A DNA stretch of 64,000 bases from Escherichia coli (lineage in GTDB: Bacteria > Pseudomonadota > Gammaproteobacteria > Enterobacterales > Enterobacteriaceae): assembly GCF_016026235.1 (NCBI RefSeq), contig NZ_CP065613.1; one strand, given 5' to 3'. Of the stretch, positions 8,104-41,741 are shown piece after piece. Made by a program: the position numbers and the translations under genes. Below the pieces are notes generated by a model that did not search any database, was not told the DNA's origin, and was given only the letters and a program-made list of their open reading frames with translations. Numbering within the stretch: position 1 is the stretch's first letter; each line of letters opens with the position of its first letter.

Positions 8104-9596
8104 TACGCCTCCATGGTTACCCGCAGAACTTCATCGAGAGAGGTTTCTCCGGCGAGCACTTTCTCAATGCCGTTGCTGCGGATACCCGCAGAGTGTTGTC
8201 GGACATAACGTTCCAGCTCCAGCTCCCCGGCCTGACGGTGGATCAAATCACGCAATGTGGCATCCACCACGATCAGCTCATGGATGGCAGTCCGTCCGCG
8301 AAAACCTTTGTGATTACAGGCGGGACAGCCCTGTGGATGGTACAGAGTGACGGTACGGGCGTCGGTAATTCCCAGCAGGCGTTTTTCTTCGTCAGTGGCT
8401 GGTGCGGGCTGGCGGCAGTCGGGACACAGCGTGCGAACCAGTCGCTGCGCCATCACGCCCGTCAGACTGGAAGAGAGCAGGAAAGGCTCCACGCCCATAT
8501 CCTGCAAACGTGTGATCGCCCCCACCGCTGTGTTGGTATGCAGCGTGGAAAGGACCAGGTGTCCGGTAAGTGAAGCCTGGACGGCGATTTCTGCGGTTTC
8601 GGTATCGCGGATTTCACCGACCATCACCACATCTGGGTCCTGACGCAAAATCGCGCGCAGCCCACGGGCAAAGGTCATGCCGACGCGGGTGTTAACCTGC
8701 GTCTGACCGATCCCTTCAATCATGTATTCGATGGGATCTTCAACCGTGAGAATGTTGCGCGAATGGTTGTTCAGCTCCTGCAATCCGGCGTACAGCGTGG
8801 TGCTTTTGCCGGAACCCGTCGGCCCCGTCACCAGAAAGATGCCGTGCGGTTTGTGTAACAGCTGGCGCAACTGCGCGGTCAGTTGCTGGCTAAGCCCCAG
8901 ACGCTCCAGCGTCAGGCGGGCCTGGTTTTTGTCCAGCAGTCGCAGCACCACGCGCTCGCCCCAGGCAGAAGGCATGGTGGAGACACGCACGTCAATCGCC
9001 CGGCCGCCCAGCAACAGCGCAATACGTCCATCCTGCGGCACGCGCTTTTCGGCAATGTCCAGCCGCGCCATCACCTTGATACGCGATACCAGCAGCGAGG
9101 CCAGTTTGCGCCCCGGGCGCAGCATTTCATGTAATGTGCCGTCAACACGAAAACGGATCACCAGACTCTTTTCAAATGTCTCGATGTGAATATCCGAAGC
9201 GCCTTCTTTAATCGCCTCTGCCAGCATAGCGTTGATCAGTTTGATGATTGGCGCGTCGTCGTCGCTTTCCAGCAGATCTTCCGTTTCCGGCAGTTCTTCG
9301 GCGAGGGTAAAAAAATCCTCAGCAGAACCGAGATCTTCCATCAACTGGCGAGCTTCGGAAGAGTCCCGCTGCCAGACCGCATTCAGCCGCTGTTCAAATT
9401 CGGCCTCGTCGATTTGCCGCAGCGTAAAGGGCGCGTTCAGCCCCCGCTGCAGCTCCTGCAAAACAGAGAGCGATAGCGGATGAACGTGGAGGATCTCCAG
9501 CGACGCTTCGCACCATGCCACCAGGCTAAACCGACGGCTGAAACTGTAGGGCAGACGCACGGTGTTGGCGGTGGTTTCCTGTGCTACAGGCACCAT
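8103..9596 (-). CDS. gspE: type II secretion system ATPase E
   Basis: Walker [10 protein letters not shown] and a C-terminal CPDC...CPAC tetracysteine motif; 497 aa. Confidence 0.85.
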
Positions 9597-28770: not shown

Positions 28771-29913
28771 TTAAATTTGCTTTTCATACAATCGGTAACG
28801 CTTGTACGGCTCCGCCCCAATGCGTTCCAGCATGTTATTCATGCCTGTATTGGTTTCGAGGATCCATGACATCTCCAGCGCATCGATCTTCCGGCGGGCA
28901 AACGGATCGCGTAAGGCTTCAATCAATAACAGCGCAATCACCGGGCCGATGCGGCTGAACTGATACTCGTCGCGCACGCCCATCAGCGGTACTCGCGCAG
29001 TTCGCACACCGCTGACTTTCAAACGCCACAGCAATTTTGCCCAGCCGAAGGGAAAGAGCGATCCGTTCAGATCGGCAATCGCCTCGTTGATGTTCGGCAA
29101 GCCGACAATAAACGCGCAGGGTGCAGAATCAATCTCAGCGATATAGATCATATCGTCCGGCACCAGATATTTAAGTTGATCGCCCATGGTCGCGAATTCA
29201 TGTTCGGTAAACGGCACAAATCCCCAGTTGTGCTGCCAGCCAGAGTTGAAAATCTCACGCAGGATCTGCATTTCTTCGGCAAACCGCTGACGATTGATGC
29301 AGCGAATGGTCACCTTTTTGCGCACCTGATCCATCAGTTTTTTTAGCGCCGGAGAGAAAGTGAGATCGGTTCGCTGCATCCACCACGCCAGTAAATCAAT
29401 GCCTTTGTGATAACCCAGTTGTTCAATATGCGCGGCATACCACGGTTTGCCGTGTGGCATCATCGCACAGGGTGGTGTGTCAAAACCTTCAATCAGTAAT
29501 CCGCTTTCCTGATTGATATTCAGGCTGAAAGGACCGCTGATCTTACTTGCACCTTGTGACTTCAACCACGCTTCCGCTGCGCCAAACAACGCGGCAAAAA
29601 CCTGCGGATCATCAATGGCGTCAATCATGCCGAAATGACCGGTATCTTCACCGTAACGCTCACGGTGCAAGGTATCTATTTGCGCGGTAATACGCCCAAC
29701 TATCTGCCCCGCTTTTTTTGCCACCCACGCCTGCCAGATGATATGGTCCGTCCCCGGATTTTTCGCAGACAAATGCTCGTTGCGTTCAATGAATAAAGGG
29801 GGTATCCAGTTTGGATCGTCGGGATAAAGTAATGACGGAAAAGCGATAAATGCCTTAAGGTCATTTTTATTAATTACTTTTTCAATTTTAATCATCAGCA
29901 GATCGCATTCCAT
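28771..29913 (-). CDS. yghO: YghO-family protein, putative GNAT-like N-acyltransferase
   Basis: 380-aa ORF convergent with glcC and divergent from the FAAL operon; the acyltransferase assignment is inferred, not motif-proven. Confidence 0.55.
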   Translation of the reverse strand: MECDLLMIKIEKVINKNDLKAFIAFPSLLYPDDPNWIPPLFIERNEHLSAKNPGTDHIIWQAWVAKKAGQIVGRITAQIDTLHRERYGEDTGHFGMIDAIDDPQVFAALFGAAEAWLKSQGASKISGPFSLNINQESGLLIEGFDTPPCAMMPHGKPWYAAHIEQLGYHKGIDLLAWWMQRTDLTFSPALKKLMDQVRKKVTIRCINRQRFAEEMQILREIFNSGWQHNWGFVPFTEHEFATMGDQLKYLVPDDMIYIAEIDSAPCAFIVGLPNINEAIADLNGSLFPFGWAKLLWRLKVSGVRTARVPLMGVRDEYQFSRIGPVIALLLIEALRDPFARRKIDALEMSWILETNTGMNNMLERIGAEPYKRYRLYEKQI

Positions 29914-30283
29914 AGTTCTGTGGGTAACAAATAATTAACGGTGACAAACAGGTTGCAACAGCAACGAATGGCACCTTAATAATCAACCCAATGAATACAA
30001 ACGACGAATAAATAGTATTTATTAATGATTACGATAAGGTCAAAGACTACACAGAAGCGCCACAATGCCTTTTGTCGATTTAAGGCGACCGGACAAGGCT
30101 TCTTCTTAATATATTCATAAATTAAATATCATTCACAATAAAAACAAAAAACTTAAACTCATTATTTAAATCAATGTTCATTTTCACACCGATGAAAATA
30201 CTATCTCATTTATCTTTTATGCCTATATAATCCACCGCATTATTGTCATTTTATTTTTGATATCCAATTTTTTCGTGGTGTAT
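29914..30283. promoter_or_regulatory. AT-rich divergent promoter region between yghO and the FAAL operon
   Basis: About 370 bp of very AT-rich DNA with A/T tracts between two divergent genes. Confidence 0.35.
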
Positions 30284-32005
30284 ATGTCTAATAAAATCTT
30301 TACGCATTCCCTACCTATGCGCTATGCCGATTTTCCAACGCTGGTTGATGCTTTGGACTACGCCGCTCTGAGTAGCGCCGGAATGAATTTTTATGACAGA
30401 CGTTGCCAACTTGAAGATCAACTGGAATATCAGACGTTAAAAACGCGTGCCGAAGCTGGTGCGAAGCGGTTGTTATCGCTGAACCTGAAAAAAGGCGAAC
30501 GCGTGGCGCTGATTGCCGAAACGAGTAGCGGGTTCGTAGAGGCTTTTTTTGCCTGTCAGTATGCTGGCTTAGTCGCCGTCCCGTTGGCGATTCCAATGGG
30601 CGTCGGTCAGCGGGATTCCTGGAGCGCCAAACTCCAGGGTTTACTGGCAAGTTGCCAGCCCGCAGCCATTATCACTGGTGATGAGTGGTTGCCACTGGTC
30701 AATGCCGCGACGCATAACAACCCCGAATTACATGTTTTAAGCCACGCCTGGTTTAAGGCATTACCGGAAGCCGATGTTGCGCTCCAGCGTCCAGTTCCGA
30801 ACGATATCGCCTACCTCCAGTACACCTCCGGCAGCACCCGTTTTCCCCGTGGCGTCATTATCACCCATCGCGAAGTGATGGCTAATCTACGTGCTATAAG
30901 CCACGATGGCATTAAATTACGCCCTGGCGACCGCTGCGTCTCCTGGCTGCCTTTCTACCATGATATGGGACTGGTCGGCTTTCTCCTGACCCCCGTCGCC
31001 ACGCAACTTTCAGTAGATTATTTGCGCACTCAGGATTTTGCCATGCGTCCTTTGCAATGGCTTAAATTGATCAGTAAAAATCGCGGCACCATTTCCGTTG
31101 CGCCGCCGTTTGGCTATGAATTGTGCCAGCGCCGCGTGAATGAAAAAGATCTCGCTGAACTGGATCTTTCCTGCTGGCGCGTCGCTGGTATTGGTGCAGA
31201 ACCCATCTCCGCAGAACAACTCCATCAATTCGCTGAATGTTTCCGTCAGGTTAACTTTGACAATAAAACTTTCATGCCGTGCTACGGACTGGCAGAAAAT
31301 GCGCTGGCTGTCAGCTTCTCTGATGAAGCCTCCGGGGTTGTGGTTAACGAAGTGGATCGCGACATCCTCGAATATCAGGGTAAAGCCGTCGCGCCGGGTG
31401 CAGAGACACGCGCCGTATCGACTTTCGTCAACTGCGGCAAAGCGTTGCCGGAACATGGTATTGAAATCCGCAATGAAGCAGGTATGCCGGTCGCGGAACG
31501 TGTGGTAGGCCATATTTGCATCTCCGGTCCCAGTCTGATGAGCGGTTACTTTGGCGACCAGGCTTCGCAAGACGAGATTGCCGCGACGGGCTGGTTAGAC
31601 ACCGGCGACCTCGGTTATCTGCTGGACGGTTATCTGTATGTCACCGGACGCATTAAAGATCTGATTATTATTCGTGGCCGTAATATCTGGCCGCAGGATA
31701 TTGAATATATTGCGGAACAGGAACCGGAAATTCATTCTGGCGATGCGATTGCTTTTGTTACCGCCCAGGAAAAAATCATTTTGCAGATCCAGTGTCGGAT
31801 CAGCGATGAAGAACGTCGCGGACAGCTTATCCACGCGCTGGCAGCACGGATCCAAAGCGAATTTGGCGTAACAGCGGCTATCGATCTGTTGCCGCCCCAC
31901 AGCATTCCCCGAACGTCCTCCGGCAAGCCTGCCCGTGCGGAAGCGAAAAAACGTTATCAGAAGGCTTATGCTGCAAGCCTTCATGTGCAGGAATCCCTGG
32001 CATGA
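30284..32005 (+). CDS. fatty-acyl-AMP ligase / acyl-ACP synthetase-like adenylating enzyme
   Basis: Adenylation motifs YLQYTSGSTRFPRGV and GWLDTGDLGYL; about 573 aa from the internal ATG (track ORF starts at TTG 30257). Confidence 0.75.
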   Translation: MSNKIFTHSLPMRYADFPTLVDALDYAALSSAGMNFYDRRCQLEDQLEYQTLKTRAEAGAKRLLSLNLKKGERVALIAETSSGFVEAFFACQYAGLVAVPLAIPMGVGQRDSWSAKLQGLLASCQPAAIITGDEWLPLVNAATHNNPELHVLSHAWFKALPEADVALQRPVPNDIAYLQYTSGSTRFPRGVIITHREVMANLRAISHDGIKLRPGDRCVSWLPFYHDMGLVGFLLTPVATQLSVDYLRTQDFAMRPLQWLKLISKNRGTISVAPPFGYELCQRRVNEKDLAELDLSCWRVAGIGAEPISAEQLHQFAECFRQVNFDNKTFMPCYGLAENALAVSFSDEASGVVVNEVDRDILEYQGKAVAPGAETRAVSTFVNCGKALPEHGIEIRNEAGMPVAERVVGHICISGPSLMSGYFGDQASQDEIAATGWLDTGDLGYLLDGYLYVTGRIKDLIIIRGRNIWPQDIEYIAEQEPEIHSGDAIAFVTAQEKIILQIQCRISDEERRGQLIHALAARIQSEFGVTAAIDLLPPHSIPRTSSGKPARAEAKKRYQKAYAASLHVQESLA

Positions 32006-32916
32006 ATCAAACTGTCGCGGTGACGGGCGCTACCGGTTTTATCGGTAAATATATTATCGATAACCTGCTCGCCCGCGGCTTTCACGTTCGCGCATTGACG
32101 CGTACTGCCCGCGCTCACGTCAATGACAATCTCACCTGGGTGCGCGGTTCGCTGGAAGATACTCATTCACTTAGCGAACTGGTTGCCGGAGCCAGTGCGG
32201 TGGTCCATTGCGCTGGGCAAGTGCGCGGACACAAAGAAGAGATTTTTACCCACTGTAACGTTGACGGCAGCCTGCACCTGATGCAAGCGGCAAAAGAGAG
32301 CGGCTTTTGCCAACGTTTTCTGTTTATCTCTTCGCTGGCGGCGCGCCATCCCGAGCTCTCCTGGTACGCAAATTCCAAACACGTCGCCGAACAACGGCTG
32401 ACTGCAATGGCTGACGAAATTACGCTGGGCGTTTTTCGCCCGACAGCCGTGTATGGTCCCGGCGATAAAGAGTTAAAACCGCTGTTTGACTGGATGCTGC
32501 GCGGCCTGCTGCCACGACTTGGTGCACCAGATACACAGCTCTCTTTCCTGCACGTCACCGATTTTGCGCAAGCAGTGGGTCAGTGGTTAAGCGCCGAAAC
32601 TGTACAGACGCAAACCTATGAATTATGCGATGGCGTCGCTGGCGGCTATGACTGGCAACGCATACAGCAACTTGCCGCCAACGTCCGTTGCGGTTCCGTG
32701 CGAATGGTTGGTATTCCTCTGCCGGTACTCACCTGCCTTGCGGATATCAGTACCGCGTTGAGTCGCCTGGCAGGTAAAGAACCTATGCTGACCCGCTCGA
32801 AAATTCGTGAATTAACCCACGCCGACTGGTCGGCAAGTAATAACCGTATTTCTGAAGATATTAATTGGTTTCCCGGGATTAGCCTGGAACACGCATTACG
32901 CAACGGGCTATTTTGA
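32002..32916 (+). CDS. NAD(P)-dependent epimerase/dehydratase-family (extended SDR) reductase
   Basis: N-terminal Rossmann motif VAVTGATGFIGKYI; start overlaps the upstream stop by 4 nt. Confidence 0.7.
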   Translation: MNQTVAVTGATGFIGKYIIDNLLARGFHVRALTRTARAHVNDNLTWVRGSLEDTHSLSELVAGASAVVHCAGQVRGHKEEIFTHCNVDGSLHLMQAAKESGFCQRFLFISSLAARHPELSWYANSKHVAEQRLTAMADEITLGVFRPTAVYGPGDKELKPLFDWMLRGLLPRLGAPDTQLSFLHVTDFAQAVGQWLSAETVQTQTYELCDGVAGGYDWQRIQQLAANVRCGSVRMVGIPLPVLTCLADISTALSRLAGKEPMLTRSKIRELTHADWSASNNRISEDINWFPGISLEHALRNGLF

Positions 32917-32947
32917 TTGTCTTGTTTAAAGGTGTGTTAACGTTTCT

Positions 32948-33196
32948 ATGGTAAATCGTGAAATAGTAATGGATTACATCCTTTCCTGTTTACAGGATTT
33001 GGTCGAAAACGGTGTGGAAATTAAGCCCGACAGCGATCTCGTCAACGATCTTGGCCTGGAGTCGATCAAAGTGATGGATCTCTTAATGATGCTGGAAGAC
33101 AGATTCGATATTTCCATTCCTATTAATATTCTGCTGGATGTCAAAACCCCTGCGCAATTAATGGAAACTCTACTTCCATGGCTGGAGAATAAATAA
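32948..33196 (+). CDS. acyl carrier protein
   Basis: 82 aa with the phosphopantetheine-attachment signature DLGLESIKVMDL. Confidence 0.7.
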   Translation: MVNREIVMDYILSCLQDLVENGVEIKPDSDLVNDLGLESIKVMDLLMMLEDRFDISIPINILLDVKTPAQLMETLLPWLENK

Positions 33197-34368
33197 TGGG
33201 GCTATACGATAAATATGCGCGCCTTGCTGGCGAGCGACTGCAATTTAGTGACAACGGGTTAACACCGTTTGGCACCTGTATTGATGAAGTGTATTCCGCC
33301 ACCGAAGGCCGGATCGGCAATAAAAAAGTGATTCTGGCCGGGACCAATAATTATCTCGGTTTAACCTTTAATCATGATGCCATCAGCGAAGGTCAGGCAG
33401 CGTTAGCGGCCCAAGGCACCGGCACCACCGGTTCTCGTATGGCAAACGGCAGTTATGCGCCGCACCTGGCGTTAGAGAAAGAGATTGCCGAGTTTTTCAA
33501 TCGCCCTACCGCTATCGTTTTTTCAACCGGTTATACCGCTAATTTAGGCGTCATCAGCGCACTTGCCGACCATAACGCCGTGGTGTTACTGGATGCCGAC
33601 AGCCACGCCAGTATTTATGACGCCTGTTCTCTCGGTGGCGCGGAAATTATTCGTTTCCGCCATAACGATGCTAAAGATCTGGAACGGCGCATGGTTCGCC
33701 TCGGTGAACGGGCGAAAGAGGCGATTATCATCGTTGAGGGCATCTACAGCATGCTCGGTGACGTTGCGCCGCTGGCGGAAATTGTTGATATCAAACGTCG
33801 TCTCGGTGGTTATTTGATTGTCGATGAAGCGCATTCGTTTGGCGTGTTAGGCGCAACAGGGCGCGGACTGGCTGAAGCTGTCGGCGTTGAAGATGATGTG
33901 GATATTATCGTTGGTACTTTCAGTAAAAGTCTGGCCTCGATTGGCGGTTTTGCTGTCGGTTCGGAAGCGATGGAAGTGCTGCGCTACGGCAGCCGCCCGT
34001 ATATTTTTACCGCCTCTCCTTCTCCGTCCTGCATTGCGACCGTGCGCTCGTCGTTAAGAACTATTGCCACACAACCAGAGCTGCGGCAAAAGCTGATGGA
34101 TAACGCCAACCATCTGTATGACGGTCTGCAAAAACTGGGTTATGAGTTAAGTTCACATATTAGCCCGGTAGTGCCAGTAATAATCGGTTCGAAAGAGGAA
34201 GGTTTACGCATCTGGCGCGAGCTTATCTCGCTGGGCGTGTATGTGAATCTTATCCTGCCGCCTGCCGCGCCTGCAGGCATCACGCTGCTGCGCTGTAGCG
34301 TAAATGCTGCCCACAGTCGTGAGCAAATCGATGCCATCATTCAGGCATTTGCTACTCTGAAGCAGTAA
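33196..34368 (+). CDS. PLP-dependent alpha-oxoamine synthase (BioF/Kbl/serine palmitoyltransferase family)
   Basis: 390 aa with the conserved PLP-lysine context GTFSKSLASIGGF and a DEAHSFG motif; start overlaps the ACP stop by 1 nt. Confidence 0.75.
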   Translation: MGLYDKYARLAGERLQFSDNGLTPFGTCIDEVYSATEGRIGNKKVILAGTNNYLGLTFNHDAISEGQAALAAQGTGTTGSRMANGSYAPHLALEKEIAEFFNRPTAIVFSTGYTANLGVISALADHNAVVLLDADSHASIYDACSLGGAEIIRFRHNDAKDLERRMVRLGERAKEAIIIVEGIYSMLGDVAPLAEIVDIKRRLGGYLIVDEAHSFGVLGATGRGLAEAVGVEDDVDIIVGTFSKSLASIGGFAVGSEAMEVLRYGSRPYIFTASPSPSCIATVRSSLRTIATQPELRQKLMDNANHLYDGLQKLGYELSSHISPVVPVIIGSKEEGLRIWRELISLGVYVNLILPPAAPAGITLLRCSVNAAHSREQIDAIIQAFATLKQ

Positions 34369-34373
34369 TGTGA

Positions 34374-34406
34374 GCCCGCCGTGGTGTTTGCGCCACGGCG
34401 GGTTTA
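34374..34406. terminator. bidirectional terminator hairpin between convergent operons
   Basis: cccgccgtggtg / tttg / cgccacggcggg perfect stem followed by ttt, between the AOS stop and the convergent permease gene. Confidence 0.55.
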
Positions 34407-35483
34407 ATGTTGTCTGTCATACCAATACACCAGGCTCAACGCCACCAACACAAACGCTACCGGTAAACCGAGCGCGGTAACAGGTGCGCTTAACGCAAAT
34501 AGCAATCCCAGATTAACCATGATTTGATAGCTGATCCAGGTGAGTAAGCCCACGATGACGCCTACAGCGAGACGGCTACCCATCCCAGGCGAACGCGGGG
34601 CAGTAAAGGTAAACGGCACAGCCAGCAAAATCATCGCCAGGGTCAGGATGGGTTGCCCCAGTTTTTCCCACAGTGCAAGGCGGTATTCGCTGCTGGGTTG
34701 CCCGGTTTCCTGCAAATAATGGATGTAATGATTAAGCTGACGGACAGAAAAAGTATTCCCCGGCATTGATAACTCTTCAAGATTCATACTGGTGAAGGCC
34801 GATTGCCAGGCAAGATTATCTAATGTTTCCAGCGTTTCTTTGCCATTCAGCCATTTTTTATGATTCACACCATGCAGGACCCACGTTTTGTCGTCTTTAA
34901 TGGTGGCACTGCGTGCATAAATGTAGGATTCAAGCGAGAGATCGTCGGGATAATGAAATATCTCCACGCCCACCGGCTGGCCCTGCTCGTTCAGCGATTT
35001 CACCGTCACAAATTCATTACCACGCCTGGCCCACAGCATATTGCCGGTAATGTCATCGTCCTCCCCCAACGCGGTGGCGGTCGATTTGATTTGCAGCGCC
35101 TGTTGCTGCAATGGCGACGCCACCCACTCATCTATCGCGCCTAACGAAACAGTCCACAATATCCCGGCAACCAGCGCCACCAGTGCAATACGGAAGATAG
35201 AAAACCCCGTGCTGCGAATGGCGGTAAGCTCACTGTTTTTCGATAACTGCCCCAGGCCAACAATCCCTCCCAATAAGGCGATAAACGGCGAAAGTTCGAC
35301 CAGTGTGCGCGGTAAGGTCATTAGCACCACCAGCACCGCCTGAGTCCAGCGATAACCGCCCGGGCTGACATCATCCAGTTCGTTAATCAGGTTGAAGGTG
35401 GTAAAAAGCGGCAGCAATAGCCCTGCGGCGGCGGCAAAACCGAGAAAGAGATGACGGATTAAATAGCGACTGAAAACATTCAT
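34404..35483 (-). CDS. LptG-like permease (YjgP/YjgQ family), paralog
   Basis: Start at MNVFSRYLIRHLF gives a 4-nt ATGA overlap with the upstream gene; six predicted TM segments around a large periplasmic loop. Confidence 0.6.
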   Translation of the reverse strand: MNVFSRYLIRHLFLGFAAAAGLLLPLFTTFNLINELDDVSPGGYRWTQAVLVVLMTLPRTLVELSPFIALLGGIVGLGQLSKNSELTAIRSTGFSIFRIALVALVAGILWTVSLGAIDEWVASPLQQQALQIKSTATALGEDDDITGNMLWARRGNEFVTVKSLNEQGQPVGVEIFHYPDDLSLESYIYARSATIKDDKTWVLHGVNHKKWLNGKETLETLDNLAWQSAFTSMNLEELSMPGNTFSVRQLNHYIHYLQETGQPSSEYRLALWEKLGQPILTLAMILLAVPFTFTAPRSPGMGSRLAVGVIVGLLTWISYQIMVNLGLLFALSAPVTALGLPVAFVLVALSLVYWYDRQH

Positions 35484-36550
35484 CGGGAAAATTTCTGCAG
35501 CAAAGAGAAGTCGCGTGCGACCAGCATCAGCAGGCCCATTAGCATGAGTCCGGGTACTAACCACAAACCAGGAATGAGGGGAATCGCGCCGTTAGCCACC
35601 AGCGTACGGCAGACGTCGCCGCCATAAAAAATGGCAATAAACAGCAACGTCAGTGGCAATAATGTTGAAAATCGCCCTTGCCGCGGTTTTACCCGACTTA
35701 ATGAAATGGCCAGCAGCGCCATCAACAATGCTGTCAGGCCACGGCTTTGCCGCCATTGCAGTTCGGCATGATCGGCAGGAAATACAGAGCGTGCCAGCTC
35801 CGTGACCGATTTTGCTTTGCGTTTGACGTTAGGGCTTTGATCCAGCGGATTCAGATGTAATTGCAGATTACGGTAGATCTGTTCATTGTCGTCACGCCCC
35901 TGATGATCGAGAAGATAGGCAGTGCCGTTGTGCAACATAACGGTCGGTTTCTCGGGTGATGGGTCAACCACATCAACCGAACGGGCGCGGAAAATGCGGG
36001 TTCGATTGGCAGTAGAAGTATAAATCAGCGCGTCAGTCAGGCGATTATTATCCTGATCAACCGTCTGCGAAAGGATCATTCGTCCGTTATCGTTAGTGTT
36101 AAATTTCTTTGCCCGCAACTGGCGAACATCCAGCTCCGACTGCGACTGCTGCTCCAGTTGATAAATCTGCGCATAAGCCCACGGACGACCATACATCGAC
36201 AGAAGGGTGACAAAAATACTTAGCGGTATCGCCAGATAAAGAACGGCTTTGTACAAGCGTCCCGGACTGCCCCCCGCCGCAGAGATAGCGGTAATTTCCG
36301 AGTCGGTATACATCTGCCCTAGCGTCACGCCAACTGACACATACAGACCAACAGGTAACAACATCTCCAGTGCAATCAGCACTTTGTAGAAAACGATATC
36401 CAGCACAACATCAAGAGCTAATGTCCCATTTGCCGCTTCGGTCAGATAACGCTGTGCGGAGTAGCTGGCGAAAATAAAGATCAGAAAACCGACGATAATC
36501 AGCACCAGACGGCGCGTACCACGCATGATGTAGTGTTCAACCAGCTTCAT
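35480..36550 (-). CDS. LptF-like permease (YjgP/YjgQ family), paralog
   Basis: 356 aa with the same architecture as the neighbour; TM1-loop region GQMYTDSEITAISAAG resembles recalled LptF (YTESEITVMHACG). Confidence 0.6.
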   Translation of the reverse strand: MKLVEHYIMRGTRRLVLIIVGFLIFIFASYSAQRYLTEAANGTLALDVVLDIVFYKVLIALEMLLPVGLYVSVGVTLGQMYTDSEITAISAAGGSPGRLYKAVLYLAIPLSIFVTLLSMYGRPWAYAQIYQLEQQSQSELDVRQLRAKKFNTNDNGRMILSQTVDQDNNRLTDALIYTSTANRTRIFRARSVDVVDPSPEKPTVMLHNGTAYLLDHQGRDDNEQIYRNLQLHLNPLDQSPNVKRKAKSVTELARSVFPADHAELQWRQSRGLTALLMALLAISLSRVKPRQGRFSTLLPLTLLFIAIFYGGDVCRTLVANGAIPLIPGLWLVPGLMLMGLLMLVARDFSLLQKFSR

Positions 36551-37152: not shown

Positions 37153-37977
37153 TTATAGCGGAAAACGCGAAATCAGCAGCTCTAAGCGCTGGCGAATATC
37201 GCTATCCAGCGCCACCGGTGCATCATACGACTGGCGGTTTTCCATATCATCCGCCACCATGTCGTCGTGTTTATCCCCCATCAGGCCATTAATGGCGGCG
37301 AGGAAACGGGAAATCTGTAACGCCTCTTTATTTTCAGGATCAAGCGATCTTAAGGTGTCGTAATAAGAAACCTGCTGGCTGATGATTTTTCGCACATCAT
37401 GAAATTCCCTGCCGGTTAGTCGCGGTTTGGCAATTATCTCTTTCAGGGCATGCATTTGCTTTTGCCGATAGGCAATAAAACCGCTTACGCTTTCTAACTG
37501 GCTATGGCGTAATGAATAGTTCACCAACGACCAGACCGGAGAGCTTAAATAAATTCGTAACAGGTTGCCGTAATACGACACAATATTTTTCTTACCGTTA
37601 CGAAATCCGTCCTGAAAACGTCCCAGAAAAACGGTCGTTTTGCCGAATAAAAATCTGGCCTGATGCTTTTTTAAATACAGCCGTTGTGCAAAACGTAGAT
37701 GCTTGTAGCGCGCTCGCATGTATTTAAACTGTTTACGCTCGTCTGTCGTCAGCTCATCGCCTTTGGCTTGTTTGCGAATTAAACGAAGTAATTCCTGACG
37801 ATCAACGCCATTGAGCCAGAATTGCAGGCATAACGCGTAATTATCATGGATGATTTCGGTGGTACAACATAGTGCGATAGTCGGCGGCAAACTGACCTGG
37901 GCATCAACAACATCATCTTCCTCAATCGCAACAAATAGATGCTCGCTCGCCTCAAGCGGGAAATATTTTCTCATCAT
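37153..37977 (-). CDS. hypothetical cytoplasmic protein (274 aa)
   Basis: ORF whose start overlaps the flippase stop by 1 nt; no recognisable motif. Confidence 0.45.
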   Translation of the reverse strand: MMRKYFPLEASEHLFVAIEEDDVVDAQVSLPPTIALCCTTEIIHDNYALCLQFWLNGVDRQELLRLIRKQAKGDELTTDERKQFKYMRARYKHLRFAQRLYLKKHQARFLFGKTTVFLGRFQDGFRNGKKNIVSYYGNLLRIYLSSPVWSLVNYSLRHSQLESVSGFIAYRQKQMHALKEIIAKPRLTGREFHDVRKIISQQVSYYDTLRSLDPENKEALQISRFLAAINGLMGDKHDDMVADDMENRQSYDAPVALDSDIRQRLELLISRFPL

Positions 37978-39371: not shown

Positions 39372-40130
39372 TTAAGTTAAACTTCGGCGGTCAGAAACGA
39401 TGGCAACCAGAGAAACCGCCTTCTGTGCCTGTTCCAGCACTTCGCTGTAGGGCGCTCTGGAATCAATCTCAAGAATTTTTGTGCCGTTATAGCCAATCGT
39501 CGACATAACACTGATTTTGTCCTGCAGCTCGGCATAGTCATGGTCAGGCTTGCGGGAGATGGCAGTCTCAATATCAATGCCCAGGCGAATAATTAATTCC
39601 GGGCGATATTGCGCCATTTGTTGGTATAAACGCCGTTCGCGCTGCGCCAGAAACATGCTGATTTTCCCGGTCGCACGTTCGACGCCAATCCCCGGTCCGT
39701 CATAATAAAAGCCCGAAATTTCAGCCTGCGGGAAGCGATCGCTGACCACCAGAACGCCACTTTGCGCCAGTCGCTGAACCTTGCGTAGATTCGCCATTCT
39801 TCGCAGCGAGAAGCAGTACATAATCACCGCCGCCCATAGCGCCGGAGATTTGGTTTTCATGCTTTGGGTTTTCGAGGATTTGGCCGCCAGTCGCCGTTCC
39901 AGCCAGACGCCAACCAACGGCAATCGTTTGATTTTGTCGCCGTCTTCGCCGGAGAGCAGCCCCAAATAGCGGCGCTCGGTTTGCCAGTGTTGTTGCAGCG
40001 ATTTCACCAGGTCGGTGGTCAGTGTGGATTTACCGGTGCCATCACACCCGACCACCGCAATCAGCCCCGGAATGTAGTTGGGCTGCGGCGCGGTTGTACT
40101 AATAACAGTTTGTGTTTGTAGTGCATCCAT
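39372..40130 (-). CDS. yghR: P-loop NTPase, kinase-like
   Basis: Walker A VGCDGTGKST; shares DRFPQ and SRKPDH motifs with two neighbouring paralogs. Confidence 0.65.
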   Translation of the reverse strand: MDALQTQTVISTTAPQPNYIPGLIAVVGCDGTGKSTLTTDLVKSLQQHWQTERRYLGLLSGEDGDKIKRLPLVGVWLERRLAAKSSKTQSMKTKSPALWAAVIMYCFSLRRMANLRKVQRLAQSGVLVVSDRFPQAEISGFYYDGPGIGVERATGKISMFLAQRERRLYQQMAQYRPELIIRLGIDIETAISRKPDHDYAELQDKISVMSTIGYNGTKILEIDSRAPYSEVLEQAQKAVSLVAIVSDRRSLT

Positions 40131-40161: not shown

Positions 40162-40875
40162 TCAAGAAAGCGCGGCGTGAATTGCGCGTAGTGACGCTTG
40201 CAGAATTTCATCGGCTGGTTGCCGACCATCCAGTTCAAGGATCTTTGCGCCATTGAATGTCAATTGCGGCGTAACGGCGATTTTTTCCTGTAACGCTGCC
40301 AGTTGGTGGTCAGGTTTACGCGCAAACGCGGTTTGTTCATCAATGCCAAGACGAATCAACAATACGGGTAAATAAGACGCCATCCATTGGTACAGCTTCA
40401 ACTCGCGCTGCCTTAACATTTTTATCCAACCGTTACCGCCCGTGGTTTTTGCCAATTGCGGGCCATCAAAGCGAAAACCCGGCACTTCAACCTGCGGGTA
40501 GCGGTCGGTGATGAGCAGATGGCCTTGCTGGCTTCTACACAACATTTTGCGAAACTTGTACGCCCGCCAGCAGGAAAGCAGATAGATAACCAGCGCAGTA
40601 ATATTGCCAGGCGGTGTTGAGGGCTTTTCGTGCACATGTGCCGCTTTACTTCGCAGATAACGCCCAAAAGGTGCGCCAATAACAGGGAGCTGTGAAATCC
40701 ATTCGCCAATTCGCCCGGACGATTGCCCGAGATAAATGCGTTCTGTTGGCATTCTTGCTGCCAGTTCATTTACCAGGCTTGCCGTGAGGGTCGATTTACC
40801 TGAACCATCACATCCTACAATGGCAATAACACGCACTGGCGTGGAATTAATTATTGACATATTACGTTGATTCAC
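40162..40875 (-). CDS. yghS: P-loop NTPase, kinase-like
   Basis: Walker A VGCDGSGKST, plus DRYPQ and ARKPDH motifs. Confidence 0.65.
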   Translation of the reverse strand: MNQRNMSIINSTPVRVIAIVGCDGSGKSTLTASLVNELAARMPTERIYLGQSSGRIGEWISQLPVIGAPFGRYLRSKAAHVHEKPSTPPGNITALVIYLLSCWRAYKFRKMLCRSQQGHLLITDRYPQVEVPGFRFDGPQLAKTTGGNGWIKMLRQRELKLYQWMASYLPVLLIRLGIDEQTAFARKPDHQLAALQEKIAVTPQLTFNGAKILELDGRQPADEILQASLRAIHAALS

Positions 40876-41048: not shown

Positions 41049-41741
41049 ATGCAGTCAATAACACCTCCATTAATTGCCGTTATTGGTAGCGATGGTTCAG
41101 GCAAGTCAACGGTGTGTGAACATCTCATTACCGTTGTCGAAAAATATGGTGCTGCCGAAAGAGTTCATTTAGGAAAACAAGCCGGAAATGTCGGTCGTGC
41201 AGTGACAAAATTACCGTTGATGGGAAAATCCTTACATAAAACAATTGAACGAAATCAGGTGAAAACAGCAAAAAAATTGCCAGGACCAGTTCCGGCGCTG
41301 GTAATTACAGCGTTTGTCGCCCGTCGCTTACTGCGCTTTCGTCATATGCTTGCCTGTCGTCGTCGCGGGTTAATTGTTCTAACCGACCGTTATCCTCAGG
41401 ACCAAATTCCTGGCGCTTACGATGGTACGGTGTTCCCACCTAACGTTGAAGGTGGTCGTTTTGTCTCATGGCTGGCAAGCCAGGAACGTAAAGCGTTTCA
41501 CTGGATGGCGAGCCATAAGCCTGATCTGGTCATCAAACTCAATGTCGATCTAGACGTGGCCTGCGCGCGTAAGCCTGACCACAAAAGGGAATCGCTGGCA
41601 AGAAAGATAGCCATAACGCCACAGTTAACCTTTGGTGGTGCACAACTGGTTGATATCGACGCCAATCAGCCACTGGAACAGGTGTTAGTTGATGCAGAAA
41701 AAGCGATTACGGATTTTATGACCGCGCGTGGTTATCACTAG
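41049..41741 (+). CDS. yghT: P-loop NTPase, kinase-like
   Basis: Walker [10 protein letters not shown], plus DRYPQ and ARKPDH motifs; divergent from yghS. Confidence 0.65.

Follow-up and report, generated by a model that had tools for sequence, protein, structure and literature searches.

Why most strains of Escherichia coli should encode a second pair of LptF/LptG-type permeases, which lipid such a pair would carry and what would power it are the questions raised by a locus on contig NZ_CP065613.1 (assembly GCF_016026235.1). The window analysed is a stretch of 64,000 nucleotides of the E. coli chromosome between glc and hyb, and the two genes, called here lptF2 and lptG2, occupy an interval 100% identical to strain FDAARGOS_943. 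Until 2024-2026 it was not clear by which route sphingolipids arrive at the outer membrane; the answer now on offer, that a dedicated pair of LptFG paralogs borrows LptB, the motor of lipopolysaccharide (LPS) export, rests on one organism. Judged from genomic context and from analogy with that organism, LptF2 and LptG2 are likely to be a sphingolipid extractor that shares the housekeeping LptB in E. coli. The feature is real and ordinary in kind; its interpretation is essentially already published, and the corresponding UTI89 locus has already been depicted.

Two permease genes of the LptF/LptG family

An earlier interpretation made from the letters of the window (the sequence-only reading) described two YjgP/YjgQ-type permeases of about 357 amino acids each, translationally coupled through an ATGA overlap. 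Both genes were recovered as intact minus-strand open reading frames (ORF) of nearly that length, with exact coordinates (Table 1), and the plus strand reads TCAT at 35480-35483, where the lptF2 stop codon overlaps the lptG2 start codon. The longest lptG2 ORF encodes 386 amino acids from a GTG at 35564; the ATG at 35483 is the start used in RefSeq and in the ortholog alignments.

The products of lptF2 and lptG2 matched Pfam PF03739 (LptF_LptG) end to end (E-values 9e-54 and 2e-68; model positions 2-352 and 1-352 of 353, respectively). LptF2 exceeded the equivalog cut-off of NCBIfam TIGR04407 for LptF (318 bits; cut-off 230), and LptG2 that of TIGR04408 for LptG (306 bits; cut-off 240). Both proteins are members of the LptF/LptG permease family by full-length profiles above curated cut-offs, and because each passes a different equivalog model, the pair consists of one F-type and one G-type gene and not of one gene doubled. 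The NCBI annotation pipeline (PGAP) and RefSeq label both the paralog and the canonical pairs 'LPS export ABC transporter permease LptF/LptG' (ABC, ATP-binding cassette), PGAP choosing these names because the cut-offs are exceeded. The substrate implied by the RefSeq name is probably wrong for the paralog pair.

The two proteins were rightly taken as paralogs of the essential lptFG genes sited elsewhere: LptF2 was 29% identical to K-12 LptF and LptG2 28% identical to K-12 LptG, and the canonical lptF-lptG genes adjoin pepA in K-12. Of 5426 complete E. coli genomes, 5425 carried canonical lptFG. The paralog pair was present in 4130 of the 5426 (76%), in 4105 of them with at least 80% coverage, and was missing from about one quarter. 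One full-length lptB was detected per E. coli genome at blastn sensitivity, and E. coli thus carries canonical lptFG plus the paralogs with no second lptB. In K-12 MG1655 (NC_000913.3 3129043-3132408) an IS5 element (insH9) lies between yghO and a 5'-truncated yghQ, and aasR, the reductase gene, acpR, spt, lptG2, lptF2, the YtfJ-like gene and the gene of the 274-amino-acid protein are absent. The loss of the pair in K-12 is attributed to an IS5-associated deletion.

AlphaFold2 (AF2) models of LptF2 and LptG2 had predicted local distance difference test (pLDDT) values of 93.6 (95-sequence alignment) and 82.3 (8-sequence alignment), respectively. Each model opens with three long helices, the second of them followed by a short coupling helix, and continues with a strand-rich domain (residues about 145-235 in LptF2 and 150-227 in LptG2) and three further helices. 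Foldseek searches of the PDB returned LptF chains as the best matches of LptF2 (9dok_F; TM-score 0.81, full chain) and LptG chains as the best matches of LptG2 (6mit_G; TM-score 0.85, full chain), and the periplasmic domains gave additional weak matches to the LptA and LptC jellyrolls. By these models, each protein would span the membrane six times, with a periplasmic beta-jellyroll inserted between the third and the fourth helix. The large periplasmic loop of the sequence-only reading, whose case a missing jellyroll would have refuted, is kept in both predicted structures.

The coupling helix of canonical LptF and LptG docks in a groove of LptB, has the consensus phi----E-phi-x-phi-phi---G and contains a conserved Glu (LptF E84, LptG E88) essential for LptB2FG assembly (Simpson 2016, PMC5082905). 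This consensus was intact in LptF2 (M80...E85 I86 T A88 I89 ... G93) and in LptG2 (L80...E85 L86 T A88 I89 ... G93), and the Glu was invariant in the F2-clade (25/25) and G2-clade (25/25) proteins.

Linkage to ceramide synthesis

The pair had been placed within a lipid locus, and the gene content gives that locus a name: yghO, aasR, a cerR-like reductase gene, acpR and spt mark it as a ceramide/sphingolipid locus. AasR, epi, AcpR and Spt of E. coli BL21 correspond to ECD_02851-02854, yghO (ECD_02850) has been equated with the ceramide N-acyltransferase gene aca (bCerS), CC_1154, and E. coli Spt, AcpR and AasR are enzymatically active when expressed (Padilla-Gomez 2022, PMC9386255). The ceramide-precursor operon also contained a match to NF006624 (875 bits). 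The end of spt is 35 nt from the lptG2 stop codon, and the two genes are convergent.

Relatives of the pair were surveyed in one genome per species by scanning contigs for LE[MVL]L[LV]P[VIL][AGT]LY; 80 loci with 10-kb flanks were returned, in which ceramide genes were detected by tblastn. At least one ceramide-synthesis gene lay within 10 kb of the pair in 68 of the 80 loci, spt in 56 and all five genes in 46. Seven of the 12 loci without ceramide genes were on short contigs or cut by a contig end. The genes of the window, together with this recurrence, place the pair in or beside an spt/bCerS locus. The Enterobacterales among the 80 loci included Escherichia, Pseudocitrobacter, Hafnia, Sodalis, Serratia, Shimwellia, Pluralibacter, Mangrovibacter, Erwinia, Citrobacter, Rahnella, Pantoea, Tatumella and Rosenbergiella, and synteny of the whole locus was kept across at least 14 genera of this order. 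The other taxa included many Pseudomonas, Azotobacter, Nitrococcus, Nitrosomonas, Nitrosospira, Geobacter, Nitrospirales, Acidobacteriota and others. No alpha-proteobacterial locus was returned by the pattern scan. Published work places lptF2/lptG2 in many alpha- and gamma-proteobacterial sphingolipid loci (Uchendu 2026, bioRxiv 10.64898/2026.04.12.717747).

An exhaustive search over cluster representatives showed a step in identity, with 55-67% in Enterobacterales and at most 38% in the next tier. Linkage to sphingolipid genes was repeated in metagenome loci L005, L006 and L011 and in Citrobacter locus L010; the contexts of L003, L004 and L009 were too short to inform on linkage. In L005 (37% identity) and L011 (55%), spt, acpR, the reductase gene, aasR, the gene of a YghO homolog and an NTP_transf_3 gene are followed by the F-G pair, and YghO of the window was 47% identical to the protein encoded beside the pair in L005.

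Two modules alternate around the same ceramide genes and F2/G2 genes. The Enterobacterales-type module (L010, L013-L033) contains the MOP-family YghQ, the YtfJ-like protein, the orphan 274-amino-acid protein and YghR, YghS and YghT; the Pseudomonas-type or distant module (L034-L053, L011, L005) contains an MsbA-like ABC exporter, NTP_transf_3 and a DAGK_cat kinase. This alternation suggests that the flippase step has been swapped between protein families.

Cargo, energy source and alternative explanations

In Caulobacter, CC_1168, CC_1156 and CC_1155 were named LptC2, LptF2 and LptG2, and it was proposed that they transport phosphosphingolipid together with CC_1166, a potential flippase (Olea-Ozuna 2024, PMC11324152). 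A later preprint reported that the genes for LptC2, LptF2 and LptG2 tolerate deletion only where spt or cpgB has been deleted as well, that the cell requires the pair when it produces anionic sphingolipid, and that LptF2 and LptG2 purify together and bring down the sole housekeeping LptB; its Figure 2B drew the E. coli UTI89 operons as homologous (Uchendu, Isom and Klein 2026, bioRxiv 10.64898/2026.04.12.717747). The role offered by the sequence-only reading, extraction of a non-LPS lipid from the inner toward the outer membrane, matches the proposal of Olea-Ozuna 2024 and is supported, by analogy, by the Caulobacter results of Uchendu 2026.

The same reading had found no LptB-like ABC ATPase nearby and had left the energy source open. 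The absence was upheld: a search for the ABC signature as [LFYV]SGG[QEMRK] in six reading frames of the whole 64 kb returned zero motifs, and the only Walker A motifs in the window were those of yghR, yghS, yghT and one ORF at 8106-9614. No LptB ortholog, LptC homolog or LptA homolog was found near the pair in any of the 80 genome loci (80/80). For Caulobacter, the energy question is answered by the published co-purification with LptB.

The pair would supply the membrane-spanning subunits of a second extractor of the LptB2FG type, one that serves the sphingolipid of the surrounding locus. According to the literature, AasR, AcpR, Spt and YghO (bCerS) would build an oxidised ceramide on the cytoplasmic face, and the CerR-like reductase would reduce it. 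A head group would probably be added next. The lipid would then cross the inner membrane, with the MOP-family YghQ as its probable flippase, and be lifted into the periplasmic beta-jellyrolls of the extractor; the existing Lpt bridge would probably carry it onward to the outer membrane. Energy would come from two copies of the housekeeping LptB docked on the conserved coupling helices; for the Caulobacter analog, LptB was shown as the partner by pull-down.

Cationic residues of canonical LptG (K34, K40, K41, R133, R136 and K62) and LptF (R33 and K317) contact the 1'- and 4'-phosphates of lipid A and the inner core of LPS, and K34E is lethal in canonical LptG (Tang 2019, PMC6744409). The equivalents of K34, K40, K41 and R133 were N, D, D and L in E. 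coli LptG2, and D/E/N, D/E, D and hydrophobic residues, respectively, in 21-23 of 25 sequences of the G2 clade. LptG K62 and R136 and LptF R33 and K317 were retained as cationic residues in F2/G2. The full set of cationic lipid-A and core contacts expected of a strict LPS exporter is thus incomplete, and the pattern weakly suggests a cargo smaller than bis-phosphorylated lipid A with core and still anionic. The acidic replacements at K34, K40 and K41 were considered as proof of a non-LPS substrate and were downgraded to weak support; the residue argument is weak because canonical LptG of Caulobacter is also without K34, K40 and K41.

Several observations, this last one included, weigh against the sphingolipid extractor with shared LptB. 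By BLAST, E. coli LptF2 scored 40 bits against Caulobacter crescentus (Cc) LptF2 and 84 bits against E. coli LptF, and E. coli LptG2 scored 57 bits against Cc LptG2 and 128 bits against E. coli LptG, the Caulobacter sequences having been machine-read from the PDF of Supplemental Figure 1 of the preprint with the loss of a few residues. A hidden Markov model (HMM) of the E. coli-type F2 clade scored 49 bits with Cc LptF2, 80 with Cc LptF and 197-233 with gamma-proteobacterial LptF; the G2-clade HMM scored 86 bits with Cc LptG2 and 95 with Cc LptG, and the canonical gamma-proteobacterial proteins scored 197-306 bits over both models. In neighbour-joining (NJ) trees (Kimura-corrected p-distances, 200 bootstraps), the E. 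coli-type F2 clade was monophyletic in 180/200 replicates, Cc LptF2 grouped with Cc LptF in 176/200 and Cc LptG2 with Cc LptG in 192/200, and the Caulobacter paralogs fell inside the E. coli-type clade in 0/200. Orthology of the E. coli-type pair with the Caulobacter pair was thus unsupported by BLAST, HMM and NJ, and what is learned from Caulobacter is carried over to E. coli by context, architecture and analogy and not by close orthology. The trees suggest that the E. coli-type and Caulobacter pairs are two independent duplications; long-branch or compositional attraction could also produce the grouping of the Caulobacter paralogs.

Further points on the same side are biological. Any role of the locus must be accessory because K-12 is viable without it. 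Some lineages of E. coli and Shigella often carry truncated LptF2 alleles (cluster P0101, 243 amino acids and 471 members; others are P0105-P0113, P0046 and P0030, including a Shigella boydii fragment), which indicates lineage-specific decay of the locus. Literature searches covering sphingolipids in E. coli and work on yghO, yghQ, yghR and yghS found no demonstration of the lipid and no paper that tests lptF2 or lptG2 of E. coli; that LptB is shared, that the lipid travels over the LptC/LptA/LptDE bridge and that YghQ acts as a flippase are steps that we infer.

Against the sphingolipid extractor with shared LptB, three other explanations were weighed. The pair might be a second LPS exporter, a back-up or a condition-specific one for LPS or modified LPS, and the PGAP names, with equivalog cut-offs exceeded, the fully canonical fold and coupling helix and the RefSeq product name of the neighbouring YghQ ('lipopolysaccharide biosynthesis protein') would all agree with this. 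Such an exporter is nevertheless very improbable: the pair travels with spt, bCerS, aasR, acpR and the cerR-like gene in the 68 of 80 loci across phyla and not with LPS genes, it is merely 28-29% identical to the co-resident canonical pair, that pair is retained in essentially every genome, and four of the LptG lipid-A/inner-core contacts have changed, with acidic residues at three of these positions in most sequences; K34E is lethal in the canonical protein. An unlikely alternative, somewhat less so than LPS export, is that the pair exports the lipid of the locus with the power of a non-LptB ATPase, either YghR, YghS or YghT or an orphan ABC ATPase. Three Walker-A proteins are indeed encoded in or next to the operon, the sharing of LptB in E. 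coli is something that we infer, and a possibly dedicated LptB homolog beside the pair of metagenome locus L007 implies that such pairs can own a motor; yet the partner in L007 is itself an LptB homolog, and YghR, YghS and YghT are without the ABC signature, resemble kinases of dTMP (thymidine monophosphate) and nucleosides and not ABC nucleotide-binding domains, and are missing from many F2/G2 loci (Sodalis, Serratia M24T3, Rosenbergiella and most Pseudomonas-type or distant loci). The strict conservation of the LptB-docking motif of the coupling helix and the binding of LptB by the Caulobacter pair also argue against a different motor.

It was also considered whether the genes are silent, functionless leftovers of a horizontally acquired island in E. 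coli, which is the least probable of the three. The IS5-associated loss in K-12 had no obvious cost, about one quarter of the genomes are without the pair, the truncated clusters (P0101 above all) are sizeable and accompanied by Shigella fragments, and no report of an E. coli sphingolipid was found in the literature, all of which would agree with this. The pair is nevertheless intact in 4105 of 5426 genomes, the whole locus is syntenic across at least 14 Enterobacterales genera, and the E. coli proteins Spt, AcpR and AasR show enzyme activity. Divergence from the Citrobacter orthologs was low at nonsynonymous sites (pN 0.15 for lptF2 and 0.19 for lptG2) and saturated at synonymous sites (pS about 0.7), and neighbouring genes diverged in the same manner (pN/pS about 0.14-0.32 over every gene compared, with pS saturated), which denotes strong purifying selection. 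Non-functional remnants, which would have told against the sequence-only reading, are not what these values describe.

In the metagenome locus L007 (887-4746 of a high-GC contig), a sulfotransferase gene is followed by the gene of an LptB homolog and then by an F-G pair that belongs broadly to the same clade. This LptB homolog is 56% identical to K-12 LptB, contains PF00005 and PF12399 and is the sole case of an adjacent LptB among the relatives. Sulfotransferase genes were also found beside the pairs of L005, L072, L073, L079 and L084.

Neighbouring genes and comparison with known systems

The minus-strand string runs yghS, yghR, yghQ, the gene of the 274-amino-acid protein (hyp274), the YtfJ-family gene, lptF2 and lptG2, with spacing from a 4-nt overlap to 45 nt. 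The sequence-only reading erred in setting the pair directly downstream of a flippase, as the hyp274 and YtfJ-family genes separate yghQ from lptF2.

Table 1. Features of the lptF2-lptG2 locus in the window (positions in nucleotides from the first letter of the window; aa, amino acids; SDR, short-chain dehydrogenase/reductase; ACP, acyl carrier protein).
Feature	Description	Position	Strand	Basis or remark
yghO	homolog of bacterial ceramide synthase/acyl-CoA N-acyltransferase (aca/bCerS)	28771-29913	-	PMC9386255
ceramide-precursor operon	aasR to spt	30257-34368	+	profile matches; BL21 orthologs ECD_02851-02854
aasR	fatty acyl-AMP ligase/acyl-ACP synthetase	30257-32005	+	
reductase gene	SDR reductase, CerR/epi-like	32002-32916	+	
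acpR	acyl carrier protein	32948-33196	+	
spt	serine palmitoyltransferase	33196-34368	+	NF047599, 600 bits
hairpin	G+C-rich, 16 bp, between convergent spt and lptG2	34371-34406	+	16 pairs, 10 G-C; consensus match only
lptG2	LptG-type permease paralog, 359 aa from ATG	34404-35483	-	downstream of lptF2
lptF2	LptF-type permease paralog, 356 aa	35480-36550	-	ATG start
YtfJ-family gene	YtfJ-family protein, 187 aa	36581-37144	-	TIGR01626, 213 bits; 30 nt upstream of lptF2
hyp274	274-aa protein	37153-37977	-	orphan
yghQ	MOP/Polysacc_synt-family flippase-like membrane protein, 449 aa	37977-39326	-	weak NCBIfam MOP flippase matches
yghR	P-loop protein, dTMP-kinase-like	39372-40130	-	Walker A; sub-threshold dTMP kinase matches
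yghS	P-loop protein, dTMP-kinase-like	40162-40875	-	head of minus-strand string
yghT	third paralogous P-loop protein	41049-41741	+	divergently transcribed

The N-terminus of the YtfJ-family protein is signal-peptide-like (MMSSRLIIALIIMLLAPGVQA followed by HN). Its gene neighbours lptF2 solely in Enterobacterales-type loci, and a few assemblies call the YtfJ-family protein and LptF2 as a 553-amino-acid fusion (P0003-P0006). The YtfJ-family protein could be a periplasmic partner of the pair. Neither Pfam nor NCBIfam gave a match for the hyp274 protein, in which no transmembrane helix or signal peptide is evident. It was 62% identical to its Citrobacter ortholog (pN 0.23, pS 0.72), which indicates purifying selection, and identity ranged from 51 to 96% across Enterobacterales loci.

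A Pfam search with YghO gave no match. The Citrobacter ortholog of YghQ carries PF01943/PF13440. YghR, YghS and YghT are candidates for head-group chemistry, and one homolog, 36-45% identical to them, occurs in some Pseudomonas loci. Homology of these three proteins to the Caulobacter ceramide kinase CpgB was rejected, CpgB being DAGK-like with a GGDG motif; Pseudomonas-type loci hold a separate DAGK_cat gene. The hairpin between spt and lptG2 overlaps the lptG2 stop codon and is, from its sequence, probably a shared bidirectional terminator.

The E. coli-type clade may have arisen independently of the Caulobacter pair, with duplicated LPS extractors recruited to sphingolipid export at least twice, and about three quarters of E. 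coli strains may make and export an undescribed head-group class; this combination is put forward tentatively and is rather doubtful. Such a class comes into question because the YtfJ-like protein, the orphan protein, YghQ and the three P-loop proteins replace CpgABC and the MsbA-like exporter. If true, this sphingolipid class would have been missed because K-12 deleted the locus. Envelope biology based on K-12 is blind to the locus. Locus-bearing E. coli (BL21, UTI89 and most natural isolates) would be the most tractable test system and could show whether two lipid cargoes share LptB, LptC, LptA and LptDE, and how they are sorted. A second F/G pair in most E. coli is also to be considered in work on zosurabalpin-class antibiotics that act on LptB2FG and on lptFG essentiality.

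Compared with canonical LptB2FG(C) (PDB 6MHU, 6MIT, 6S8H and 9DOK), the paralogs fall into identical Pfam and NCBIfam families and are predicted to share six transmembrane helices and a jellyroll per subunit, an F-G heterodimer and the conserved coupling-helix Glu; their genes overlap likewise. Unlike canonical LptFG, the pair is accessory and not universal, lies in a sphingolipid locus and not beside pepA, and does not keep the LptG contacts K34, K40, K41 and R133. In Sphingomonas, LptFG is encoded near spt and is the proposed sphingolipid carrier of an LPS-free sphingolipid producer (bioRxiv 10.64898/2026.04.12.717747); it is the sole copy there and not a second copy as in E. coli.

The Caulobacter crescentus pair (CCNA_01214/CCNA_01213; CC_1156/CC_1155), the only LptF2/LptG2 pair whose function has been tested, is likewise a second pair in a sphingolipid locus beside a ceramide synthase gene, with the same predicted architecture and no lptB of its own. 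Unlike Caulobacter, E. coli is without LptC2 and the DAGK-type ceramide kinase CpgB, and has the YtfJ-like protein, hyp274, YghQ and YghR, YghS and YghT instead. The pairs of Pseudomonas- and Azotobacter-type loci share 48-61% identity with that of E. coli, occur with the five ceramide genes and form one clade with the E. coli pair (200/200 bootstraps for F2 and 196/200 for G2); they differ in that the MsbA-like exporter, NTP_transf_3 and DAGK_cat replace YghQ, the YtfJ-like protein and hyp274.

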